Below are positions 1-10,737 of a stretch of DNA of 64,000 nucleotides, one piece after another. The position numbers and the translations under genes were made by a program. The DNA comes from Candidatus Latescibacterota bacterium (GTDB taxonomy: Bacteria > Latescibacterota > UBA2968 > UBA8231), in NCBI GenBank assembly GCA_965221775.1, contig CBDCSU010000006.1, forward strand, positions 1,696,001 to 1,760,000, given 5' to 3'. A model generated the notes under the pieces. That model was not told the DNA's origin, did not search any database, and saw only the letters and a list, made by a program, of their open reading frames with translations. Positions within the stretch are counted from its first letter, which is position 1. Each line of letters begins with the position of its first letter.

Positions 1-1
1 G

Positions 2-664
2 CTGCGCCTGCTGGCGGCCGAAGCGATCGCCCGCCTCTGCCGCGACGCGGCGCCCGCGATCCACGCGGCGCGCGAGGCCCCGCCCGCCGAGTCCGGGATC
101 CCCGGCGCCGCCGACTCCACGTCGGCCGAGGTCCTCCGCACCCATCTGCTCGAGGGCGGTGCCCCCCGCGAGAGGTTCGGGACGCCGCCGGCCCCCCACG
201 CGGGTCTCGGACTGCCGGGCTGCGCCCCGGGCGCCAGCCCCCTGTCGAGCTACGTCGACCTGGCCATGCAGCGGCAGTTGCTGTGGATCGCGGGCCGGCG
301 CTCCGACCCCCTCACGGCGGAGGACCTCGAGCGCATCCTGCTGGAGACGCGCGAGGCCCGGGAGGCGGCGGAGCGCGTGCGCCGCGGCAGCCGCCGCTAC
401 TGGACGCTCAAGTGGCTCGAGGGCTTCGGGGACGAGGCGCGGCTGGAGTGCGTGGTCGCCGAACCGCGCGGCCCCGGGCACCTGGTACTGCTGCCCGAGG
501 GTCCGGTGGCGTGCCATGTCCCGGCCCCCCGGGGGCAGCGGCTGCAGGCGGCGCCGGGCCAGCGCCTGCGGGTGCGGGTGGAGCAGGCCTCCGCCCGGCG
601 CGACCTGTTGCGGCTGGCCGACCCCGAGCCCGCCCGGAGAGCGGACCCGCTCCCACCGGCCTGA
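2..664 (+). CDS. RNB-domain (RNase II/R-like) protein, 5'-truncated by window edge, degenerate motif
   Basis: Frame open from base 2: LRLLAAEAIAR...HAGLGLPGCAPGASPLSSYVDLAMQRQL resembles RNB motifs (MLLANEAVA; HFGLGL..YTHFTSPIRRYxDL..HRQL), followed by an S1-like tail. Confidence 0.7.
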   Translation: MRLLAAEAIARLCRDAAPAIHAAREAPPAESGIPGAADSTSAEVLRTHLLEGGAPRERFGTPPAPHAGLGLPGCAPGASPLSSYVDLAMQRQLLWIAGRRSDPLTAEDLERILLETREAREAAERVRRGSRRYWTLKWLEGFGDEARLECVVAEPRGPGHLVLLPEGPVACHVPAPRGQRLQAAPGQRLRVRVEQASARRDLLRLADPEPARRADPLPPA

Positions 665-666
665 GA

Positions 667-2019
667 ATGGTCCGAGCGGGCCTGTGCGCGGCCCTCGCGG
701 GGGCCTGCTGGCTGCTGGCCGGGGCCGCCGCCGCGGGTGAGCCGGAGACCGAGGCAAGCCGATTCTGGCCCGCCTGGCGCGGCCCCCTGGGCACCGGCGC
801 CTCTCCCCACGCTGAGCCCCCGCTCCAGTGGAGCCAGACCCGCAACCTGCGCTGGAAGGCGTCCCTGCCCGGCGGCGGCCACTCTACGCCGGTGGTCTGG
901 GGCGACCGGGTCTTCATCACCGCCGCAGTCCCGTACGGCGAGCCCCTGCCGCCGACGTACAGCGGGCTGCCGGGCGGCCACGACGAACGGCCGGTCACCC
1001 ATCGCCACCGGTTCGTCGTCCTTGCCCTGAGCCGCACCACGGGGCGGGTCCTCTGGCAGCGGGTCGTGCGCCACGACCTGCCCCGCGCCGGGGGCCACTA
1101 CACCGCCAGCCTGGCCTCCGCCTCGGCGGTGACCGACGGCGAGCACCTGGTCGCCTCCTTCGGCTCCCACGGGATCTACGGCCTCGACCTCGAGGGGGAG
1201 CTGCTGTGGGAGTTGGACCTCGGCCCCATGGAGCCGCTTCACGGCCACGGCGAAGGCAGCTCGCCGGCGCTCGCCGGCGGGACGCTGATCGTCAACTGGG
1301 ACCACGAGGGCGAGTCCTTCCTCGCCGCCTTCGACAAGAGGACGGGCGGCCTGCGCTGGAAGGCTCCGCGCGAGCCGGCCTCGTCCTGGACCACCCCCAT
1401 CGTGACCGACGCCGGCGGCCGCATCCAGGTCGTGGTCAGCGGCTCCGGGGGAGTGCGCGGCTACGACCTGGCCGACGGCCGCAGGATCTGGGAGTGCCCC
1501 GGCCTCTCGGTGGAGAACGTGGTCTCCACGCCGGTGGCCGGCTTCGGCCTCGTCTTCGCGGGCAGCAGCTACGACCGGCAGGCGGTGCTGGCGATTCCGC
1601 TGCAAGCCGCCGCGGACGAGACCGGCGGGCCCCGCCGGGCCGCCTGGAGCCGCACCCGGGGGGCGCCGTACGTCCCCTCCTTCCTGCTCTACGGGGACGC
1701 CCTCTACTTTGTCCGCCACTTCCAGAACATCCTCACCCGCGTCGACGCCCGAACGGGGCGGGACCGGCCGGGGCCGATGCGCCTGAAGGGCCTCGACCGG
1801 GTCTTCGCCTCTCCCGTCGCCGCTGCCGGCCGCGTGTACGTCACCAGCCGCAACGGCGTCACCGTGGTGGTCAGCCACGCCGATTCGCCCGCCCTCCTGG
1901 CCGTCAACCATCTCGACGACAGCTTCAGCGCCTCGGCGGCACTGGCCGGCGGCGAGCTCTACCTGCGAGGACGACACCACCTCTACTGCATCGCGGAGCA
2001 TCCGCCCCCGGCCCGGTGA
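667..2019 (+). CDS. Secreted PQQ-binding-like (BamB-like) beta-propeller protein
   Basis: Signal peptide, WPAWRGP, STPVVWGDRVF and repeated SSP/STP...W propeller blades. Confidence 0.85.
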   Translation: MVRAGLCAALAGACWLLAGAAAAGEPETEASRFWPAWRGPLGTGASPHAEPPLQWSQTRNLRWKASLPGGGHSTPVVWGDRVFITAAVPYGEPLPPTYSGLPGGHDERPVTHRHRFVVLALSRTTGRVLWQRVVRHDLPRAGGHYTASLASASAVTDGEHLVASFGSHGIYGLDLEGELLWELDLGPMEPLHGHGEGSSPALAGGTLIVNWDHEGESFLAAFDKRTGGLRWKAPREPASSWTTPIVTDAGGRIQVVVSGSGGVRGYDLADGRRIWECPGLSVENVVSTPVAGFGLVFAGSSYDRQAVLAIPLQAAADETGGPRRAAWSRTRGAPYVPSFLLYGDALYFVRHFQNILTRVDARTGRDRPGPMRLKGLDRVFASPVAAAGRVYVTSRNGVTVVVSHADSPALLAVNHLDDSFSASAALAGGELYLRGRHHLYCIAEHPPPAR

Positions 2020-2044
2020 ACCCGGCAGGCGCCGGCGGTGTCAA
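2018..2044 (+). promoter_or_regulatory. Candidate ECF-type promoter upstream of the sigma gene
   Basis: GAACCC-N16-GTCAA, then GGAGG RBS and ATG at 2060. Confidence 0.35.
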
Positions 2045-2059: not shown

Positions 2060-2665
2060 ATGGGGAAGAGCGACGAGGAGCTGGTCCGCGGGGTGATCGA
2101 GGGGCGGCAGGAAGACTTCGCCGAGCTCTTCGAGCGCTACCGCGCCGATGTGCAGCGGCACCTGCGGCGGATCCATCGCCATGACGAGGACGCCGCCGAC
2201 GTCGGGCAGGAGGTGTTCCTGCGCCTGTGGCACCGCGCCGGACAGTGGAAGGGCGACGGCCCCCTGCTCGCCTGGCTGCTGCGCATCGCCACCAACCTCG
2301 CCCTCAACCACATCCGCTCGGTCCGGCGCCGCCGCGAGCAGCCGCTGCAGCCGCCCCCCGCCATGGACGGAGAGGAGGAGGACGACACCCGGGTTCCGGA
2401 GTGGATGATCGACGCCTCCACCCTTCCGCCCGACGAGGTCCTGGCCGTGGCCGAGCGCCGGCGGCTGCTGCGCGGCCTGGTGACGCGTCTGCCCGAGGAC
2501 GGGCGCAGGGTCATCCGGCTGATCTACGACGGCCACCTGAACACGCGCCAGGCCGCTACCGAGCTGGGCATACCCGAGGGCACGGTGAAGTCCCGGATCC
2601 ACCACGCCCGCAAACAGATCGCTCGATCCTGGCGCGACCTGGGGATCGACTGGGAGGAGGACTAG
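2060..2665 (+). CDS. ECF sigma-70 family RNA polymerase sigma factor
   Basis: Region 2 DAADVGQEVFLRLW / AWLLRIATNLALN; region 4 ELGIPEGTVKSRIHHARK. Confidence 0.95.
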   Translation: MGKSDEELVRGVIEGRQEDFAELFERYRADVQRHLRRIHRHDEDAADVGQEVFLRLWHRAGQWKGDGPLLAWLLRIATNLALNHIRSVRRRREQPLQPPPAMDGEEEDDTRVPEWMIDASTLPPDEVLAVAERRRLLRGLVTRLPEDGRRVIRLIYDGHLNTRQAATELGIPEGTVKSRIHHARKQIARSWRDLGIDWEED

Positions 2666-2667
2666 GC

Positions 2668-5600
2668 ATGGCGACCGCACCGTCCAACCCGTGGCACAAG
2701 GCGTCCTTCGACGAATTCCTGCACCGCCGCCTTCCCGAGTTGCTGGCCGCACGGCTGGGGGTGACCACCTGCCGCGCCGCAGGGGCCGGCGGTCACGCCT
2801 GCCGGATCGTCCTCGGCGGGCGTTCCGCCGAGGGGGACTTCGAGGTCGAGTACGACGGGCTGCCCGCACCGGACGAGGAGGGCGTCTTCCGGTTGCCGGG
2901 TTCCCCGGACCCGGACGGCGGGCCCCGCCTGCCGCCCCCGAGGACGTACCACGGGGGGGAGCGCGAGCCCTCGGGCGAAGTCGAGCTGGTCGTGCTGCCC
3001 GTGGCCGACCGGGACGACCTGGCCGAGGCCCGAATCGACTGTCTCGGCGACCGGCTCTCGACCTTCATCGAGTCCCGCCTCGGGGAGGTCCCCGGCCACA
3101 CCCCCCTCGACGGGTCCCTCCTGCGGACCCTGGCGCCTCTGAAGGACTGGTTCCACTCCTTCCTGGCCTCCTGCGGCGAGCGGCTCGACGACACCAACTG
3201 GCTGTCCCGGTCCGCGCACCTGCGCCGGATCCTGGTCCCGGACCGCCAGGAGGTATTCACCCCCGGCCACTTCGGCCGCACCTGCCCCTTCGAGACCCCG
3301 GAGGGACCGAACATCGGCCGCGTCCTGACGATCTCCCGGGGCGCGGAGATCCGCGGCCGCCGGCTGGTGATCGTCGACGCGAAGCCCGCGGAGGGACTGG
3401 GCATGTCCAGCGCATGCATCCCCTTCCTCGAGCACGACGACGGCAACCGCGTGCTCATGGGCGCCAACATGATGCGCCAGTGGCTGGCGCCCGCCGAGAG
3501 AGAGCCGGCCTTCGTGCGGACCGGCCTCGAGCCGCGGGCGCCGGACTTCTGGTGCGGCCGGAACCTGCTCACGGCTCTGCTCTCGTGGGACGGGGACGCC
3601 TTCGAGGACGCCGTGCTGCTCAGCCGGTCCGGCGCCCGCAAGCTCGCCTGCCCGGAGCCCCTCGAGCCCGGCGACAAGCTCAGCAACCGCCACGGGATCA
3701 AGGGCGTCGTGTCCCGGGTGGCGCCCGACGAGGAGATGCCGCGGCTGCCCGACGGCACCCCCGTGGAGCTGGTCTTCAGCTTCTCCGGCATTCCGTCCCG
3801 CTGGGTCATGGGGCTGGTCCGGGAGGCCGCCCTCGGACACGCGGCTCACCTGCGGGGGGAGCCCGCCGTCGTGCCCCCCTTCAAGGCGCCTTCCGACGAG
3901 CAGTTGCGGAACCTGCTTCAGGGCAGCGGCCTGCGCGCCGACGGCATGACCACGCTGACCCTCGACGGCACTCCCCTGCGGCGGCCGGCCACGGCCGGAT
4001 CGGTCTACTGGGGCTGCACCGTGCATCGCGCTCGCCCGAAACTGAGGGCCGCCGTCCACCCCGACGACCGGGGCCAGCGCCTGGGGGAGATGGAGGTGCG
4101 GGCCCTGGCCGAGGCCGGGGCGCCCGCGGTGATCCGGGAGCTGACCAACACCTGCTCCAGCCAACGCGGCGACGCCGGTTCCCTGGCCGAGAGGGCCGCC
4201 GCCGGACCGGTCGAGCCGGCGAGCACCCCCTCTCCCGCCTTCTCGGCCCTGGCGGCGGGTCTGGCGCAGGCCGGAATCCGCGCCGAGGCCGGCCCCCGGG
4301 GGGTCGCCTTCCGGTTGGAACCACCCCGGGGGCCGACGCTGTCCCTGGCCGCCGGCGTGCCCCACCCCTGGTTGCCGGGGAAGACCCTGTCCGAGGTCTG
4401 CGCAGCCGAGGGGGCCGCCGGATATCCCGAGGTCCTCGCCGCCAACGGCAGGCTCGCCCGCCTGCCGAAGGACGGGGCTCCCGAGCCCCTGGCAGCCGCG
4501 GCTCTCGACGATCTGGCCGCCGCTGTCTCGGACCTGTACGACGGACTGGCCGCCGCGCCGCGGCTGGGGCGGGATGGGAATGTCCTCTTCAGCGGCCGTG
4601 CGGTGATCGTCCCCGGGGGCGATCTGCCGGCCGACCGGCTCGGCCTCCCGGCGGAGATGGCCTGGAGCCTCTTCGGGCCGCTGGTGGCCCGCGCGCTGGG
4701 GGATCCCGAAGCGGTGGGGCAGCGCTCCACCGAGGCCGAGGCCGCCCTCGCCGCCGCCATGGAGGCCCACTGGGTCATCCTCGGCCACGCTCCATCGGTC
4801 AGTCCCACGGCGATGCTGGCCTTCCGGCCCCTGCCGATCCCGGGCCACGCCATCCGTCTCTGCCCCCTGGCCTGCGGCCTGTTGGACGCCGATTTCGACG
4901 GCGACCAGGCGGCCGTCTTCCTGCCTCTCACGGAGGCGGCTCAGCGCGAGACCCGCGAGCGGCTGTCCATCGCCGGCCACCTGGCCCGTGACCCCGGCCT
5001 CGTGGAGGACCTCTTCCCGCGCATGGACGCCCTCTTCGGGCTGGCCTGCCTCAGCCGCTCGGCAGCGGGCCGGAAGGCGATTACGCAAGCCGCCGGCCGG
5101 GAGCCGAACCTCGAGGGCGGCCTCCTCACCCGCGAGGCGGCGGCGATGCTGCTGCGGGGTGTCCTGACCGACGAGGGGGAGCAGGCGGCCCTGGGCGTGG
5201 CCGCGGAACTGATGCGGTTGGGGTTCGAGACGGCCCGCGCGGAGGGAGGCTCCGTGGGGCCCTTCATCGGCAGCACCCTCGAACTGCCCGTCCCCCCGGG
5301 GGAGGACGACGCGCCGCAGTGGCAGGCCTGCACGGAGGAAGCCCGGGCGATCGTCGCCGGCTTCCGCGACTACGACGACCACGACCTGGGGGCCGCCGCC
5401 CTGCTGTGCCACAGCGGCGCCCGGGCCACGGTCCATCAGCTCACCACCCTGGTGGGGCCGGGCGGACTCGTTCGCGACGTCGAGGGCCGGGTCCTCGGAG
5501 TCGCCCGCTCCTGGCGGGAGGGACTGACCGCGCGGGAGGTGCTGGCCCGGGTCGTCGGCGCCCGCCGCGGCCTGTTCCGCGTCCTGACGGAGTTCGGATC

Positions 5601-5769
5601 CCTCGGCCGGGAGCGGTCCGGGTCCGGGCCGGAGGGGTTCGGCGTCCTGGCCCGGGCCCGCCGGGTCGAGCGCCCGGGCCTCGTCTTCGCGAGGGCTGCC
5701 CTCAGGGGCGAGGTCGATCCCCTGGAAGACGAGCAATCGCGGCTGCTGGTCGGACTGTCCAGGCCGTGA
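2668..5769 (+). CDS. Miniature single-chain RNA polymerase beta/beta' fusion homologue (1033 aa)
   Basis: Collinear RpoB motifs (GRTCPFETPEGPNIG, IPFLEHDDGNRVLMGANMMRQ, FEDAV, GDKLSNRHGIKG, GQRLGEME) then RpoC motifs (SGRAVI, DADFDGDQ, SGAR, REGL..GARRGL) in one open frame. Confidence 0.93.
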   Translation: MATAPSNPWHKASFDEFLHRRLPELLAARLGVTTCRAAGAGGHACRIVLGGRSAEGDFEVEYDGLPAPDEEGVFRLPGSPDPDGGPRLPPPRTYHGGEREPSGEVELVVLPVADRDDLAEARIDCLGDRLSTFIESRLGEVPGHTPLDGSLLRTLAPLKDWFHSFLASCGERLDDTNWLSRSAHLRRILVPDRQEVFTPGHFGRTCPFETPEGPNIGRVLTISRGAEIRGRRLVIVDAKPAEGLGMSSACIPFLEHDDGNRVLMGANMMRQWLAPAEREPAFVRTGLEPRAPDFWCGRNLLTALLSWDGDAFEDAVLLSRSGARKLACPEPLEPGDKLSNRHGIKGVVSRVAPDEEMPRLPDGTPVELVFSFSGIPSRWVMGLVREAALGHAAHLRGEPAVVPPFKAPSDEQLRNLLQGSGLRADGMTTLTLDGTPLRRPATAGSVYWGCTVHRARPKLRAAVHPDDRGQRLGEMEVRALAEAGAPAVIRELTNTCSSQRGDAGSLAERAAAGPVEPASTPSPAFSALAAGLAQAGIRAEAGPRGVAFRLEPPRGPTLSLAAGVPHPWLPGKTLSEVCAAEGAAGYPEVLAANGRLARLPKDGAPEPLAAAALDDLAAAVSDLYDGLAAAPRLGRDGNVLFSGRAVIVPGGDLPADRLGLPAEMAWSLFGPLVARALGDPEAVGQRSTEAEAALAAAMEAHWVILGHAPSVSPTAMLAFRPLPIPGHAIRLCPLACGLLDADFDGDQAAVFLPLTEAAQRETRERLSIAGHLARDPGLVEDLFPRMDALFGLACLSRSAAGRKAITQAAGREPNLEGGLLTREAAAMLLRGVLTDEGEQAALGVAAELMRLGFETARAEGGSVGPFIGSTLELPVPPGEDDAPQWQACTEEARAIVAGFRDYDDHDLGAAALLCHSGARATVHQLTTLVGPGGLVRDVEGRVLGVARSWREGLTAREVLARVVGARRGLFRVLTEFGSLGRERSGSGPEGFGVLARARRVERPGLVFARAALRGEVDPLEDEQSRLLVGLSRP

Positions 5770-5854: not shown

Positions 5855-6784
5855 CTAGCCGTCCGGCCCGCGCAACTCGATGGCGTCCAGCAGTTGCTGA
5901 GGGTTGGCCAGGTCCACGGGCAGGAGCACGTCCGTCTTGCCGTCGGCCAGACCGCGCAACGTCTTGAGATAGCGCTCCGCCAGCTGCAGGTGCACCGACT
6001 GGGCGCCGCCGGCGACGCTGATCGAGGCGGCGATCTTCTCGATCGACTCGGCCGTCGCATGGGCGATGGCCCGGACCTCCTCGGCCTGACCCTGGGCCTC
6101 GTTGATGGTGCGCTGCATCTCGCCCTCCGAGCGGTTGATCAGCTCCAGGCGCCGGCCCTCCGAGGTGTTGATGCGGCTCTGCTTGTCGCCCTCGGACTGG
6201 GCCACGACGGCGCGGCGGTCGCGCTCGGCGGTGACCTGCTTCTCCATGGCGTCCTTCACCGTCGGCGGCGGCGACAGGTTCTTGATCTCGTAGCGGTGGA
6301 CGCGGATCCCCCAGGTCTCCCCCGACCTCTCCAGCACCTCCACCACTTTGGCCGAGATCAGGTCGCGCTCCTCGAAGGTCCGGTCGAGCTCGAGGGTGCC
6401 GATGACCGAACGGGTCGTGGTCTGCGCCAGTTGCATGGCGGCGAAGGAGTAGTTGGTCACCCCGTAACTGGCCTTCACCGGATCGGTGACCGAGATGTAG
6501 AGGACGCCGTCCACCTCGACCTGGACCTCGTCCCGGGTGAAGCACTCCTGGGGCGGCACGTCGACGGTCTCCTCCTTGAGATCGCGGATGAAGGCCACCT
6601 TCTCGATGAAGGGCACGAGGGCGTGGAAACCGGGGTTCAGAGTTCTGGAGTACTTGCCGAGCCGCTCGACGACGTACGCCGACTGGGTCGGCACCAGCCG
6701 GATCGAGCGCAGGAACTTGACGATCAGGACCAGGAACAGGACGGCCCAGACGATGAGGTTGAAGATCTCGAAGACGGTCGACAT
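5855..6784 (-). CDS. SPFH/band 7 (QmcA/paraslipin-like) protein
   Basis: N-terminal TM, VVERLGKY, LAQTTTRSVIG, MEKQVTAER. Confidence 0.92.
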   Translation of the reverse strand: MSTVFEIFNLIVWAVLFLVLIVKFLRSIRLVPTQSAYVVERLGKYSRTLNPGFHALVPFIEKVAFIRDLKEETVDVPPQECFTRDEVQVEVDGVLYISVTDPVKASYGVTNYSFAAMQLAQTTTRSVIGTLELDRTFEERDLISAKVVEVLERSGETWGIRVHRYEIKNLSPPPTVKDAMEKQVTAERDRRAVVAQSEGDKQSRINTSEGRRLELINRSEGEMQRTINEAQGQAEEVRAIAHATAESIEKIAASISVAGGAQSVHLQLAERYLKTLRGLADGKTDVLLPVDLANPQQLLDAIELRGPDG

Positions 6785-6785
6785 G

Positions 6786-7718
6786 TCAGGCCTCCTTCTT
6801 CTGGTTCGGCACGCCGGCGGCGACCTCGCCCAGCCCCTCGAAGAAGCCCTTGATCCGGGCCAGCTCCAGGGGCACGACGGAGACGCTGGACTTGGCGGCG
6901 ATCTCCCGGATCGTCTCGATGTACTCCTCCACCAGCTGCATCTTCAGCGCCGCCGGTCCGCCTTCCTTCTGCACCGCGGCGGCGATCCGCTCGGTGCCCT
7001 CGGCGGTGGCCTCGGCGATGATGGAGATCGCCTCGGCCTGTCCCCTGGCGACGTTGATCCGGCGTTGCTTCTCGCCCTCGGAGATGTTGATCTCCTCCTG
7101 GCGCTCGCCCTCGGAGAGGTTGATGGTGCTCTCCTTCTCCGCCGCGGCGCGGGTGATCTCGGCGCGCTTCTCGCGCTCCGCCTCCATCTGCTTCTCGAGG
7201 GTGTTCACCACGTTCGCCGAGGGCGTGATGTTGCGCAGCTCGTAGCGCAGCACCTTGATCCCCCAGGGATTCGAGGCCTTGTCGATCTCCTGGACGATCG
7301 TCTCGTTCAGGGACTCGCGCTCGTAGAACGACTGGCCCAGGGTCAGCTTGCCGATCTCGGCCCGCATCGTCGTCTGCGCCAGGTTGATGCTGGCGCGGCG
7401 GTAGTCCTCGATGCCGTAGCTGGCGCGCTCGGGATCGAGGACCTGCAGGTAGACCAGGCCGTCCACCTCGACCTGGATGTTGTCGCGCGTGATGCAGGCC
7501 TGGCTGGGGACGTCGATCACCTGCTCGCGCGTCTCGTGGCGATAGGCGATGCGGTCGAAAAAGGGGATGAGGAAGTGGAACCCCGGCTGCAGGACCGCCC
7601 GGAACTTGCCCAGCCGCTCGACGATGACCGCCGCGCGCATGGGCACGACGACAAATGTCTTGAGCACCAGGAACAGGGCGATCAGCACGAGGATCGTGAA
7701 GTACGTCAGAAGGGGCAT
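6786..7718 (-). CDS. SPFH/band 7 (QmcA/paraslipin-like) protein
   Basis: IVERLGKF, CITRDNIQVEVDG, LAQTTMRAEIG, KQMEAEREKRA. Confidence 0.93.
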   Translation of the reverse strand: MPLLTYFTILVLIALFLVLKTFVVVPMRAAVIVERLGKFRAVLQPGFHFLIPFFDRIAYRHETREQVIDVPSQACITRDNIQVEVDGLVYLQVLDPERASYGIEDYRRASINLAQTTMRAEIGKLTLGQSFYERESLNETIVQEIDKASNPWGIKVLRYELRNITPSANVVNTLEKQMEAEREKRAEITRAAAEKESTINLSEGERQEEINISEGEKQRRINVARGQAEAISIIAEATAEGTERIAAAVQKEGGPAALKMQLVEEYIETIREIAAKSSVSVVPLELARIKGFFEGLGEVAAGVPNQKKEA

Positions 7719-7721
7719 CGC

Positions 7722-8186
7722 TCAATTCTCCTGTAAGGGACCGCCGCCGTCGGGCCCGGCGGCCTCGACGACCCACACGAGGTTCTCGCGATAGGCGAGG
7801 ATCGCCTTCTCTCCCGCCTCGATGGTGCCGTCGTAGCAGATCGCCTGCCAGGTGGCGTCCCGGTAGTGGATCCGCCCCGCCTGGTCCGGCGCGATCCTCT
7901 CCACCACGTCCACGACCGTGCCGTAGGCGTCCTCCTCCTCGTCGGTGGACTGTCGCTCGGACCCGCCTCCGACGAAGCGCAGGAAGAGGCCGCGCAGGCT
8001 CAGCAGCAGGACGAGGGAGAGGATGAACCAGGTGGTGAGGGCCGGGATCAGGCCGTCGATCCAGCCCAGCCAGATGAGGGCGGCCACGATCAGGGCGCTC
8101 GACCCGAGAAAGCCGAGCACCATTCCGGGCAGGAACAACTCCAGCAGGATCATGACGGCGCCGGCGACGATCCAGGCTGTGAGCAT
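7722..8186 (-). CDS. NfeD family membrane protein
   Basis: Three hydrophobic helices (LELFLPG) plus C-terminal OB fold (GRIHYRDATWQA); adjacent to SPFH genes. Confidence 0.88.
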   Translation of the reverse strand: MLTAWIVAGAVMILLELFLPGMVLGFLGSSALIVAALIWLGWIDGLIPALTTWFILSLVLLLSLRGLFLRFVGGGSERQSTDEEEDAYGTVVDVVERIAPDQAGRIHYRDATWQAICYDGTIEAGEKAILAYRENLVWVVEAAGPDGGGPLQEN

Positions 8187-8318
8187 AGGGCCTCCGGGGA
8201 TTGGCAGGCGGAGACGGCGTCGGGGAAGGATAGGGCGGATGAGAGGGGGGAGCGAGATTGCGGGGAAGGCCGGGCGCCCGGAGCGCACCGGGGCGGCCTC
8301 CCCCGGCGGTGCAAGGGA

Positions 8319-9786: not shown

Positions 9787-10737
9787 ATGAAGATCGTCGT
9801 TCTCGATGGCTACACCCTGAATCCCGGCGACCTCAGCTGGTCCGGCCTCGAATCCCTGGGCGATGTCACCGTTCACGAACACTCCACCGCCGATCAGGTC
9901 CTGGAGAGAGCCCACGGCGCCGAGATCCTGCTGACCAACAAGACCGTCGTCTCCGGTGAGCACATCGCCCGGCTCCCCGGCCTGCGGTACATCGGCGTGC
10001 TGGCCACGGGCTTCAACATCGTCGACGTGGAAGCCGCCCGTGAGCGCGGCATCCCGGTGTGCAACGTGCCCACCTACGGCACCGCCTCGGTAGCCCAGGC
10101 CGCCATCGCCCACCTCCTCAACCTGACCCAGCGCATCGGCGACCACGCCGCCGCCGTCAACGCCGACCGCTGGGCCGAGTGCCGGGACTTCAGCTTCTGG
10201 GACCACCCTCTCGTCGAGCTCGAGGGACTCCTCTTCGGCGTCGTCGGCATGGGCCGCATCGGCCGCCGCACCGCCGAGCTGGCGAGGGCCTTCGGCATGC
10301 AGGTCCTGGCCCACACGCGCACCCCCGATCCGTCCCTCGACTGGGTGGAGCACGCGGGTGTGGACGACCTCTTCCGCCGCTGTGACGCGGTCTCCCTGCA
10401 CTGCCCGCTGACGCCGGAGACCGAGGGGATCGTCGATCGCAGGCGGCTGTCGCTGATGAAGCCGACGGCCTTCCTCATCAACACGAGCCGCGGGCCGCTG
10501 GTGGACGAGGAGGCCCTGAGAGAGGCTCTCGAGGAGGGGCGCATCGCCGGCGCCGGGCTGGACGTGATGGCCGTGGAGCCTCCGGCCTCCGGGCATCCGC
10601 TCTACGGAGTGCGGAACTGCTACATCACGCCCCACAACGCCTGGGCCACGGGCGCCGCCCGCAAGCGCCTGCTCGACACCGTGGTCGACAACGTGGGGGC
10701 CTTTCTCGACGGGAGTCCTCGGAACGTCGTCAACTGA
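9787..10737 (+). CDS. D-2-hydroxyacid (glycerate) dehydrogenase
   Basis: MKIVVLDGYTLNPGDL, GMGRIG, INTSRG, TPHNAW. Confidence 0.92.
   Translation: MKIVVLDGYTLNPGDLSWSGLESLGDVTVHEHSTADQVLERAHGAEILLTNKTVVSGEHIARLPGLRYIGVLATGFNIVDVEAARERGIPVCNVPTYGTASVAQAAIAHLLNLTQRIGDHAAAVNADRWAECRDFSFWDHPLVELEGLLFGVVGMGRIGRRTAELARAFGMQVLAHTRTPDPSLDWVEHAGVDDLFRRCDAVSLHCPLTPETEGIVDRRRLSLMKPTAFLINTSRGPLVDEEALREALEEGRIAGAGLDVMAVEPPASGHPLYGVRNCYITPHNAWATGAARKRLLDTVVDNVGAFLDGSPRNVVN

Follow-up and report, generated by a model that had tools for sequence, protein, structure and literature searches.

A clamp-helix hairpin in a reduced, putative single-chain beta-beta' RNA polymerase encoded beside an extracytoplasmic function sigma factor

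The locus and its single-chain polymerase

The window analysed here is a 64,000-nucleotide stretch of contig CBDCSU010000006.1 (positions 1,696,001 to 1,760,000 of the forward strand; assembly GCA_965221775.1) from a Candidatus Latescibacterota bacterium. It contains a gene for a sigma factor of the extracytoplasmic function (ECF) type, followed directly by a gene for an RNA-polymerase-like protein of 1033 residues. The element under study is a segment of the second gene, 4339-4545 (+), which is in frame with the open reading frame (ORF) 2668-5769 (+) and corresponds to residues 558-626 of the protein. Its translation, LSLAAGVPHPW...YPEVLAANGRLARLPKDGAPEPLAAAALDDLAAAVSDLYDG, is identical to the strings given in an initial annotation of this DNA, where the segment had been matched by eye to the sigma-binding clamp helices of the beta' subunit. 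Profile alignments and a structure prediction indicate that it encodes the beta' clamp coiled coil plus the preceding core strand, within the beta'-like half of the protein.

The true start of the polymerase ORF is the ATG at 2668, 3 nt past the stop codon of the ECF sigma gene. A longer ORF that opens with a GTG (2227-5769) was discarded because homologues are about 1033 residues long and align over 100% of the protein encoded from the ATG at 2668; the GTG-started frame from 2227 is a high-GC artefact (GC fraction 0.66-0.76).

The 1033-residue protein carries the Pfam domains Rpb2_3, Rpb2_6 and Rpb1_2. It does not reach the cutoffs of TIGR02013 (rpoB; 163.5 bits, cutoff 801) or TIGR02386 (rpoC; 100.4 bits, cutoff 963.5), and this combination of polymerase domains with scores far below both cutoffs indicates a reduced beta-to-beta' fusion of under half the usual combined size. 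The family alignment and profile were built from the protein and 114 homologues (n = 115). Against PDB chains the profile matched beta with an E-value of 4e-74, and its positions 560-811 matched residues 279-570 of beta' with 1.6e-54. The bacterial rpoB model of NCBIfam matched the 1033-residue protein at 5e-48, compared with 1e-18 and 9e-27 for the archaeal rpoB models. AlphaFold2 was run on the family alignment and gave a model of the whole protein with a mean predicted local distance difference test score (pLDDT) of 92.2 and a predicted template modelling score of 0.90; when this model was searched with Foldseek against the PDB, chains of bacterial beta and beta' matched best, at E-values from 1e-21 to 5.5e-23. 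These comparisons point to a polymerase family derived from bacterial-type rpoB and rpoC and reduced to the catalytic core. A viral origin was considered and is not favoured, the best Foldseek match among viral models having an E-value of 2.2e-18 against 5.5e-23 for the bacterial chains. Matches in PHROGs were solely to beta/beta'-like and sigma families, and PADLOC returned 0 matches for the ECF sigma factor and the polymerase.

A word-indexed search returned 307 homologues of about 1000-1090 residues with 43-98% identity, all of the named ones being annotated as 'hypothetical'. According to the names given by the source, they come from Gemmatimonadota (the closest, 84-98% identity), Hydrogenedentes, Armatimonadota and Poribacteria. 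The mean column identity of the 115 aligned sequences is 47%. In this alignment D744, G745 and D746 of the catalytic motif are invariant and A741, D742 and F743 are conserved in at least 90%; the NADFDGD motif expected of an rpoC product is thus found in the family. Its first residue is D in the window protein (DADFDGD) and N in the family consensus and in beta'. The catalytic-centre motifs of beta are likewise present, with GRTCPFETPEGPNIG at 203 and NRHGIKGV at 340, and agree with the rpoB signatures of the fork (...PEGPNIG), ...NM.RQ and RHG.KG; no variation is seen at E212, G213, N267, M268, R270, Q271, R341, G343 and K345. Over the 115 sequences, conservation also extends to the bridge-helix equivalent and to the fork and switch regions. 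C732 and C736 of the window protein adjoin the active site. Further clusters with Rpb2_6 and Rpb1_2 in one protein, of 1221-1787 residues and with taxa unrecorded, were seen in the ESM Atlas; fused beta-beta' polymerases appear, on their domain content, to occur in several size classes and to be more diverse than the present family.

The product of the upstream gene matched Sigma70_r2 (1.8e-14), Sigma70_r4_2 (2.2e-12) and Sigma70_ECF (8.4e-5) of Pfam and exceeded the cutoff of TIGR02937 (89.9 against 42.9); with regions 2 and 4 only, it has the make-up of an ECF sigma factor. Its orthologues (104 sequences) have a mean column identity of 61%, compared with 47% for the polymerase. The ordinary region-2.2 motif is kept, D47 and Q50 being invariant and E51 present in at least 90%, and residues 41-62 (region 2.1-2.2) are acidic, with a mean net charge of -2.6. 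The head of the linker between regions 2 and 4, SVRRRREQPL (ECF residues 89-94, window 2324-2341), shows almost no variation across phyla, with R90 invariant and R91, R92, E93 and P95 conserved in at least 90%. ECF linkers are generally poorly conserved, as stated in PMC6648896.

Eighty related loci were returned, comprising 4 family members and 76 ordinary rpoB-rpoC loci. The 4 family loci belong to Poribacteria, Latescibacterota (two) and Caldilineaceae (Chloroflexota), i.e. to three phyla. An ECF ORF of about 200 residues lies directly 5' of the polymerase on the same strand in 4/4 of them and in the window; no other neighbour common to the 4 loci and the window was found, and no recognizable anti-sigma gene lies nearby. 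Fifteen further ECF/polymerase pairs were taken as co-located from contigs of identical length. One of these, P0122/P0174 (length 10,636), joins a Poribacteria-like hairpin to a Gemmatimonadota-like ECF, and the pairing is probably a coincidence.

The motif TGAAC(C/T)-N12-G(A/C/G)(C/G)(C/G)(C/G/T)GTC occurs once in each of the five loci (5/5), 17-23 nt before the ECF start codon: in the window and at 5243-5268 (L001), 2668-2693 (L002), 5293-5318 (L003) and 5338-5363 (L004). It is the single match in the 64-kb window. Shuffled sequences gave a mean of 0.13 matches in total, a statistic that is post hoc, the motif having been defined from the same five sequences. It reads as an ordinary ECF promoter, with a putative -35 element TGAACC, a 16-nt spacer and a -10 element ending in GTC, and it suggests autoregulation. 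In the window, the motif shares its first bases with the stop codon of the PQQ beta-propeller ORF that lies upstream.

The coordinates of these features are collected in Table 1. None of the other neighbours in the window (PQQ_2, SPFH/Band-7, NfeD and 2-hydroxyacid dehydrogenase genes) is common to the 4 related loci.

Table 1. Positions of the genes and protein elements in the window.
Feature	Position	Strand	Basis or remark
ECF-type promoter-like motif	2017..2042	+	TGAACC, 12 nt, GCGGTGTC; 17 nt before ECF start codon
ECF sigma factor, 201 residues, regions 2 and 4 only	2060..2665	+	Pfam, TIGR02937
Single-chain beta-beta' fusion, RNA-polymerase-like, 1033 residues	2668..5769	+	Pfam, homologues, AlphaFold2, Foldseek
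Family-specific N-terminal domain, residues 1 to ~125, in place of beta lobes	2668..3042	+	No Pfam match
Beta-like part	3043-4302	+	
Helix 523-534, beta C-terminal helix equivalent, just before beta/beta' junction	4234..4269	+	Profile, AlphaFold2
Strand LSLAAGVPHPW, residues 558-568	4339..4371	+	Invariant L560/H566/P567/W568; AlphaFold2 strand 557-565
17-residue connector, residues 569-585, with strand 573-578	4372..4422	+	AlphaFold2, hidden Markov model alignment
Clamp helices: helix 586-601, turn 602-605, helix 606-627	4423..4548	+	AlphaFold2, conservation, beta' alignment
FSGRAVIV, residues 641-648, matching beta' YSGRSVI motif	4588..4611	+	Alignment; NCBIfam rpoC alignment starts at 638-639
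Catalytic metal-binding motif DADFDGD, residues 740-746	4885..4905	+	Invariance; Pfam Rpb1_2 701-765
Long helix 955-981, bridge-helix equivalent	5530..5610	+	AlphaFold2; profile 858-960 with beta' ~714-794 of L035
PQQ_2 beta-propeller protein, upstream neighbour	1-2019	+	
Two SPFH/Band-7 genes plus NfeD, downstream	5855-8288	-	
2-Hydroxyacid dehydrogenase	9787-10737	+	

The clamp-helix hairpin and its surroundings

The reference set for beta' consisted of 58 canonical beta' ORFs from the 76 ordinary rpoB-rpoC loci. The significant domain of the family profile starts at position 553-561 in 57/58 of these (position 560 is residue 584 of the window protein), and residues 584-627 align with the beta' clamp helices in the same 57 ORFs with high posterior marks; the exception is L030, in which the domain is split. 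The register is the same as that found by eye. A profile restricted to the 44 columns of the hairpin was searched against 5,836 six-frame ORF segments (952,613 residues) from the 76 loci and gave 28 matches with E <= 1e-3 (best 5.7e-6), all 28 of which fall on the beta' clamp helices, 26 of them in complete beta' ORFs and 2 in truncated ones. The hairpin lies where it is expected in an rpoC product, after the N-terminal clamp core and before the YSGR motif.

AlphaFold2 predicts the helical hairpin itself, its two helices meeting at P605, which is invariant in the family, as well as the strands at 557-565 and 573-578. N593, R595, L608, L616 and L627 are conserved in at least 90%. The two observations that the initial annotation had named as fatal to its assignment, a model with no hairpin and a segment unconserved among homologues, were thus not made.

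The accompanying claim on LSLAAGVPHPW, which the initial annotation had paired with beta' IELASPTAHIW, fared less well. Taken alone, the match to the beta' ...ELAAPVAHIW segment, the site following the beta' zinc domain, is non-significant (best E 0.03; independent E-values of 0.02-6 as an additional domain of the hidden Markov model). It is nevertheless collinear, falling at beta' residues ~75-128, and the family shows no variation at L560, H566, P567 and W568.

Column by column, the hairpin was compared between the family (n = 115) and beta' (n = 57). Common to both are Y586, V/L589, N593, R595, L596, R598, L599 and A604-P605-E606, and further along L608, L616, V620, L623/Y624 and D625; most of these belong to the heptad core or the turn. 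Polar or basic residues with 96-100% conservation in beta' have been lost at positions 587, 588, 592, 594, 611-615, 617, 618 and 621 of the window protein. The replacement of basic residues that had been noted earlier is real: the window protein has P, E, A, A, A, L and D at seven basic positions of beta', and two arginines, R595 and R598, are retained. The mean net charge of the hairpin is -0.43 in the family (-4 in the window) compared with +3.25 in beta', and the number of basic residues is 5.0 on average (3 in the window) compared with 9.0. At two exposed positions of the hairpin where the beta' residue has been lost, the family conserves a small residue of its own: position 592 is A in 73% and V in 20% of the family and position 612 is A in 74% and T in 22%. 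The Escherichia coli equivalents of 592, 612 and 619 are presumably classical sigma-70-binding determinants.

The zinc motif is absent as well. Two or more C-x(1-4)-C pairs were found anywhere in the protein in 0/115 family members, and a single pair in the hairpin region in 7/115, whereas all 50 beta' ORFs that could be scored through their H[IV]W signature (the remaining 8/58 being unscored) have at least two such pairs within the 70 residues before it. The N-terminal four-Cys zinc-binding domain of rpoC products is accordingly not found. Profile position 520, aligned with the C-terminal end of beta in the PDB, is about where the beta part stops, and the beta'-like part starts about 10 residues on; the first ~75 residues of beta', which hold the zinc domain, are therefore without a counterpart.

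Other modules are also missing. The 17-residue connector 569-585 replaces about 150 residues of beta' (the hidden Markov model alignment jumps from ~128 to ~266 in L035), and its strand 573-578 is a possible remnant of the lid. Between the hairpin and FSGRAVIV about 25 beta' residues are absent, seen as a 25-column gap on the family side, which we take to be the rudder region. On the beta side, nothing between profile positions 295 and 300 corresponds to residues 831-1075 of rpoB, the flap region (numbering of the gammaproteobacterial ORF of L035), and the flap domain with the flap-tip helix that characterizes rpoB products was not found.

Residues ~1-125 have no Pfam match; this new 125-residue N-terminal domain replaces the beta lobes. 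When residues 1-130 were searched against 1.84 billion representatives, 102 clusters were found, and in 101 of these the match lies no more than about 40 residues from the N-terminus. About 40 of the clusters are full length and the rest look like fragments at contig ends; one outlier of 4641 residues matches internally. At the other end of the protein about 50 residues follow helix 955-981. No significant beta' alignment extends beyond profile position ~960 and no trigger loop was detectable there, although a very divergent remnant is possible. Since no counterpart could be detected for the zinc domain, the rudder, the flap, the lobes or the trigger loop, the hairpin is one of the few peripheral elements of beta' that have been kept.

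Proposed docking of the ECF sigma factor on the hairpin

According to PMC6411747 and PMC6648896, sigma region 2 sits on the beta' coiled coil in ECF holoenzyme structures, this being the common anchor, and the contact is described as polar or electrostatic and conserved among sigma factors. The same sources place the ECF linker in the lid/rudder channel (PMC6648896) and describe the beta C-terminal helix as a second anchor of sigma region 4 (Li et al., 2019; PMC6411747). Since polar and basic residues have been lost from the hairpin and the contact is of this nature, the beta'-type sigma docking surface is gone, with a near-neutral surface in its place.

On balance, we consider it probable, from the sequence comparisons and the models, that the hairpin has been kept as the docking site for region 2 of a dedicated ECF sigma factor, the two proteins making up a minimal holoenzyme that acts on ECF-type promoters. 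Region 2 of the ECF would dock on the retained hairpin of the single-chain polymerase, and this two-protein holoenzyme would read TGAACC-N16-GTC promoters, its own included; the first transcripts would presumably come from the host enzyme with the same ECF. Region 4 may sit on the beta C-terminal helix 523-534, because the flap tip is missing and this helix is both retained and a reported anchor. The near-neutral surface with its conserved Ala at 592 and 612 would disfavour ordinary electrostatic docking of sigma factors. The remodelled lid/rudder channel may impose a constraint that keeps the head of the ECF linker conserved.

Complex modelling, which the initial annotation had proposed as a check, lends the docking weak support. 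The inputs were an ECF alignment of 104 rows and polymerase residues 536-1033 with 115 rows, a cut that excludes helix 523-534. The interaction prediction score from aligned errors (ipSAE) was 0.42, 0.40 and 0.50 in three runs (median 0.42), compared with 0.01 for the best of three controls. The mark applied to this score was reached by 116/157 solved complexes and 2/215 mismatched pairs, a calibration that is only rough for the present pair because our own alignments were the input; values of 0.60 or below were given by just 18/157 solved complexes and by both of the mismatched pairs that passed. At least 92% of the contacts are common to the runs, the pLDDT of the partner is 67-68 and no interface is reported. 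The pass may reflect likeness to sigma/beta' complexes that have already been solved.

Several points weigh against docking. The co-evolution of hairpin and ECF that had been suggested as a test was not seen: in 20 pairs (5 verified and 15 inferred, one seemingly mismatched) the differences follow clades only, a number too small for coupling analysis. The hairpin has lost about four of its nine basic residues, with the shift in net charge given above (from +3.25 to a mean of -0.43, and to -4 in the window protein), while region 2.1-2.2 of the ECF stays acidic at -2.6. Because the ECF keeps D47, Q50 and E51 and its acidic region, no counterpart to the charge loss is visible on the sigma side. 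Of the earlier proposal that the surface is re-tuned for the neighbouring ECF, the change on the polymerase side therefore stands and a compensating change on the ECF side does not. With its generic D/Q/E motif, the ECF looks fit for the host core enzyme too. The usual anchor of region 4, the flap tip, is missing because the flap region has no counterpart, and the lid/rudder channel for the ECF linker is altered. No fusion of an ECF to a polymerase with Rpb domains was found among 7 longer matches, which is weak evidence.

The first alternative is that the hairpin was kept for reasons other than sigma binding, either as clamp structure for the DNA/RNA hybrid or as the seat of a NusG-like factor, and that the ECF serves the host core only, the single-chain enzyme being sigma-free. 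The coiled coil is also bound by factors of the NusG family. Most of the residues shared with beta' occupy buried heptad and turn positions, the exposed polar ones being lost; the hairpin has ceased to be complementary in charge to an acidic sigma region 2.2; and the ECF and its promoter are entirely ordinary in appearance. For YonO, recognition of promoters alone or with factors is reported as still undecided (PMC5467207). This alternative leaves unexplained, however, why a dedicated and unusually conserved ECF without an anti-sigma factor is always adjacent, and why Ala is conserved at the exposed positions 592 and 612. The beta lobe is also absent, and with it the gate loop, the second contact of NusG. 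We regard this alternative as unlikely.

A second alternative starts from gene order. Anti-sigma genes usually follow ECF genes, and here a sigma gene is followed by its partner after a 3-nt gap with no recognizable anti-sigma nearby; the polymerase-like protein could thus act mainly as a binding sink or regulator that holds the ECF through the hairpin, and less as a transcribing enzyme. The invariance of D744, G745 and D746 and of R341, G343 and K345 argues against this, as does the conservation of the bridge-helix and fork/switch regions over 115 sequences, and a scaffold of 1033 residues would be costly for a mere sink. We judge this explanation highly improbable. Chance similarity of Ala/Leu-rich helices, or a decaying rpoBC remnant, might be invoked in a window of 66-76% GC with an Ala-rich segment and single-sequence NCBIfam rpoC alignments that begin only at 638, but is refuted, to the point of being hardly conceivable, by the 28/28 hairpin-only matches at the correct beta' site, the identical register in 57/58 beta' ORFs, full-length conservation across several phyla at 43-98% identity and the AlphaFold2 model with its pLDDT of 92.

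Docking of the ECF on the hairpin thus being preferred, a more far-reaching form of it can be stated. The 115-kDa polymerase might bind only its own ECF through the recharged hairpin and serve a private, self-amplifying class of TGAACC-N16-GTC promoters, orthogonal beside the host enzyme in several phyla. Judged from the sequences, this is a tentative extension about which we are doubtful.

Relation to known systems and significance

The hairpin occupies the same place as the beta' clamp helices, after the ...PV.H.W strand and before the YSGR motif, and shares with them the A-P turn and the Y, N-x-R-L-x-R, L, L, V and D positions. It differs in a net charge of about 0 instead of +3, in the loss of conserved polar and basic residues and in standing without a flanking zinc domain and rudder within one fused chain.

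YonO of the Bacillus SPbeta prophage, compared by its published description (PMC5467207), is likewise a single polypeptide of about 100 kDa with both barrels, no detectable trigger loop and many peripheral beta/beta' modules missing. That description gives YonO almost no sequence homology to the multisubunit enzymes beyond the catalytic residues, whereas the present family matches them at 4e-74 and 1.6e-54; with similarity this strong, it does not fit a YonO-like class of single chains with vestigial beta/beta' similarity. The present family also differs in keeping the clamp helices and in being paired with a sigma factor, and no phage genes were seen alongside. The full-length beta::beta' fusions of NCBIfam (NF011417 and NF007172) have the same order, beta then beta', in one chain. 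Their models span 2839-2890 positions with all modules, and the 1033-residue protein reaches 155 and 145 bits where the cutoffs are 4632 and 5372. In the yeast killer-plasmid Rpb2::Rpb1 fusion Orf6, the two large subunits are also fused and about half of the coding sequence is deleted, as described in PMC2919709; Orf6 belongs to the eukaryotic Rpb lineage, is carried by cytoplasmic linear plasmids and has no sigma factor, unlike the present family of bacterial lineage.

The arrangement of the locus resembles autoregulated ECF/anti-sigma operons, in which the ECF gene comes first, the partner gene follows immediately and an ECF-type -35/-10 lies in front; the downstream partner here is a polymerase and not an anti-sigma factor. 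No ECF neighbour with Rpb domains was found in the main text and one supplement of Casas-Pastor et al. (2021), nor was a description of an ECF-linked fused beta-beta' polymerase found in the literature searched; Iyer & Aravind (2012; J Struct Biol) may bear on novelty.

Even if the hairpin serves no sigma factor, the family is a minimal polymerase of bacterial lineage, for which the literature searched gave no description and which falls outside the rpoC, rpoB and full-length-fusion families although its hairpin is a homologue of the clamp helices. To our knowledge, all sigma-dependent transcription uses a five-subunit core enzyme of about 400 kDa. If the docking proposed here is true, a chain of 1033 residues that uses a sigma factor but has neither zinc domain nor rudder, flap, lobes or trigger loop would define a minimum for sigma-directed promoter recognition. 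It would show which modules of the core enzyme are dispensable, would offer synthetic biology a compact and possibly orthogonal polymerase/sigma pair, and would raise the question of what a bacterium gains from a second, private polymerase.

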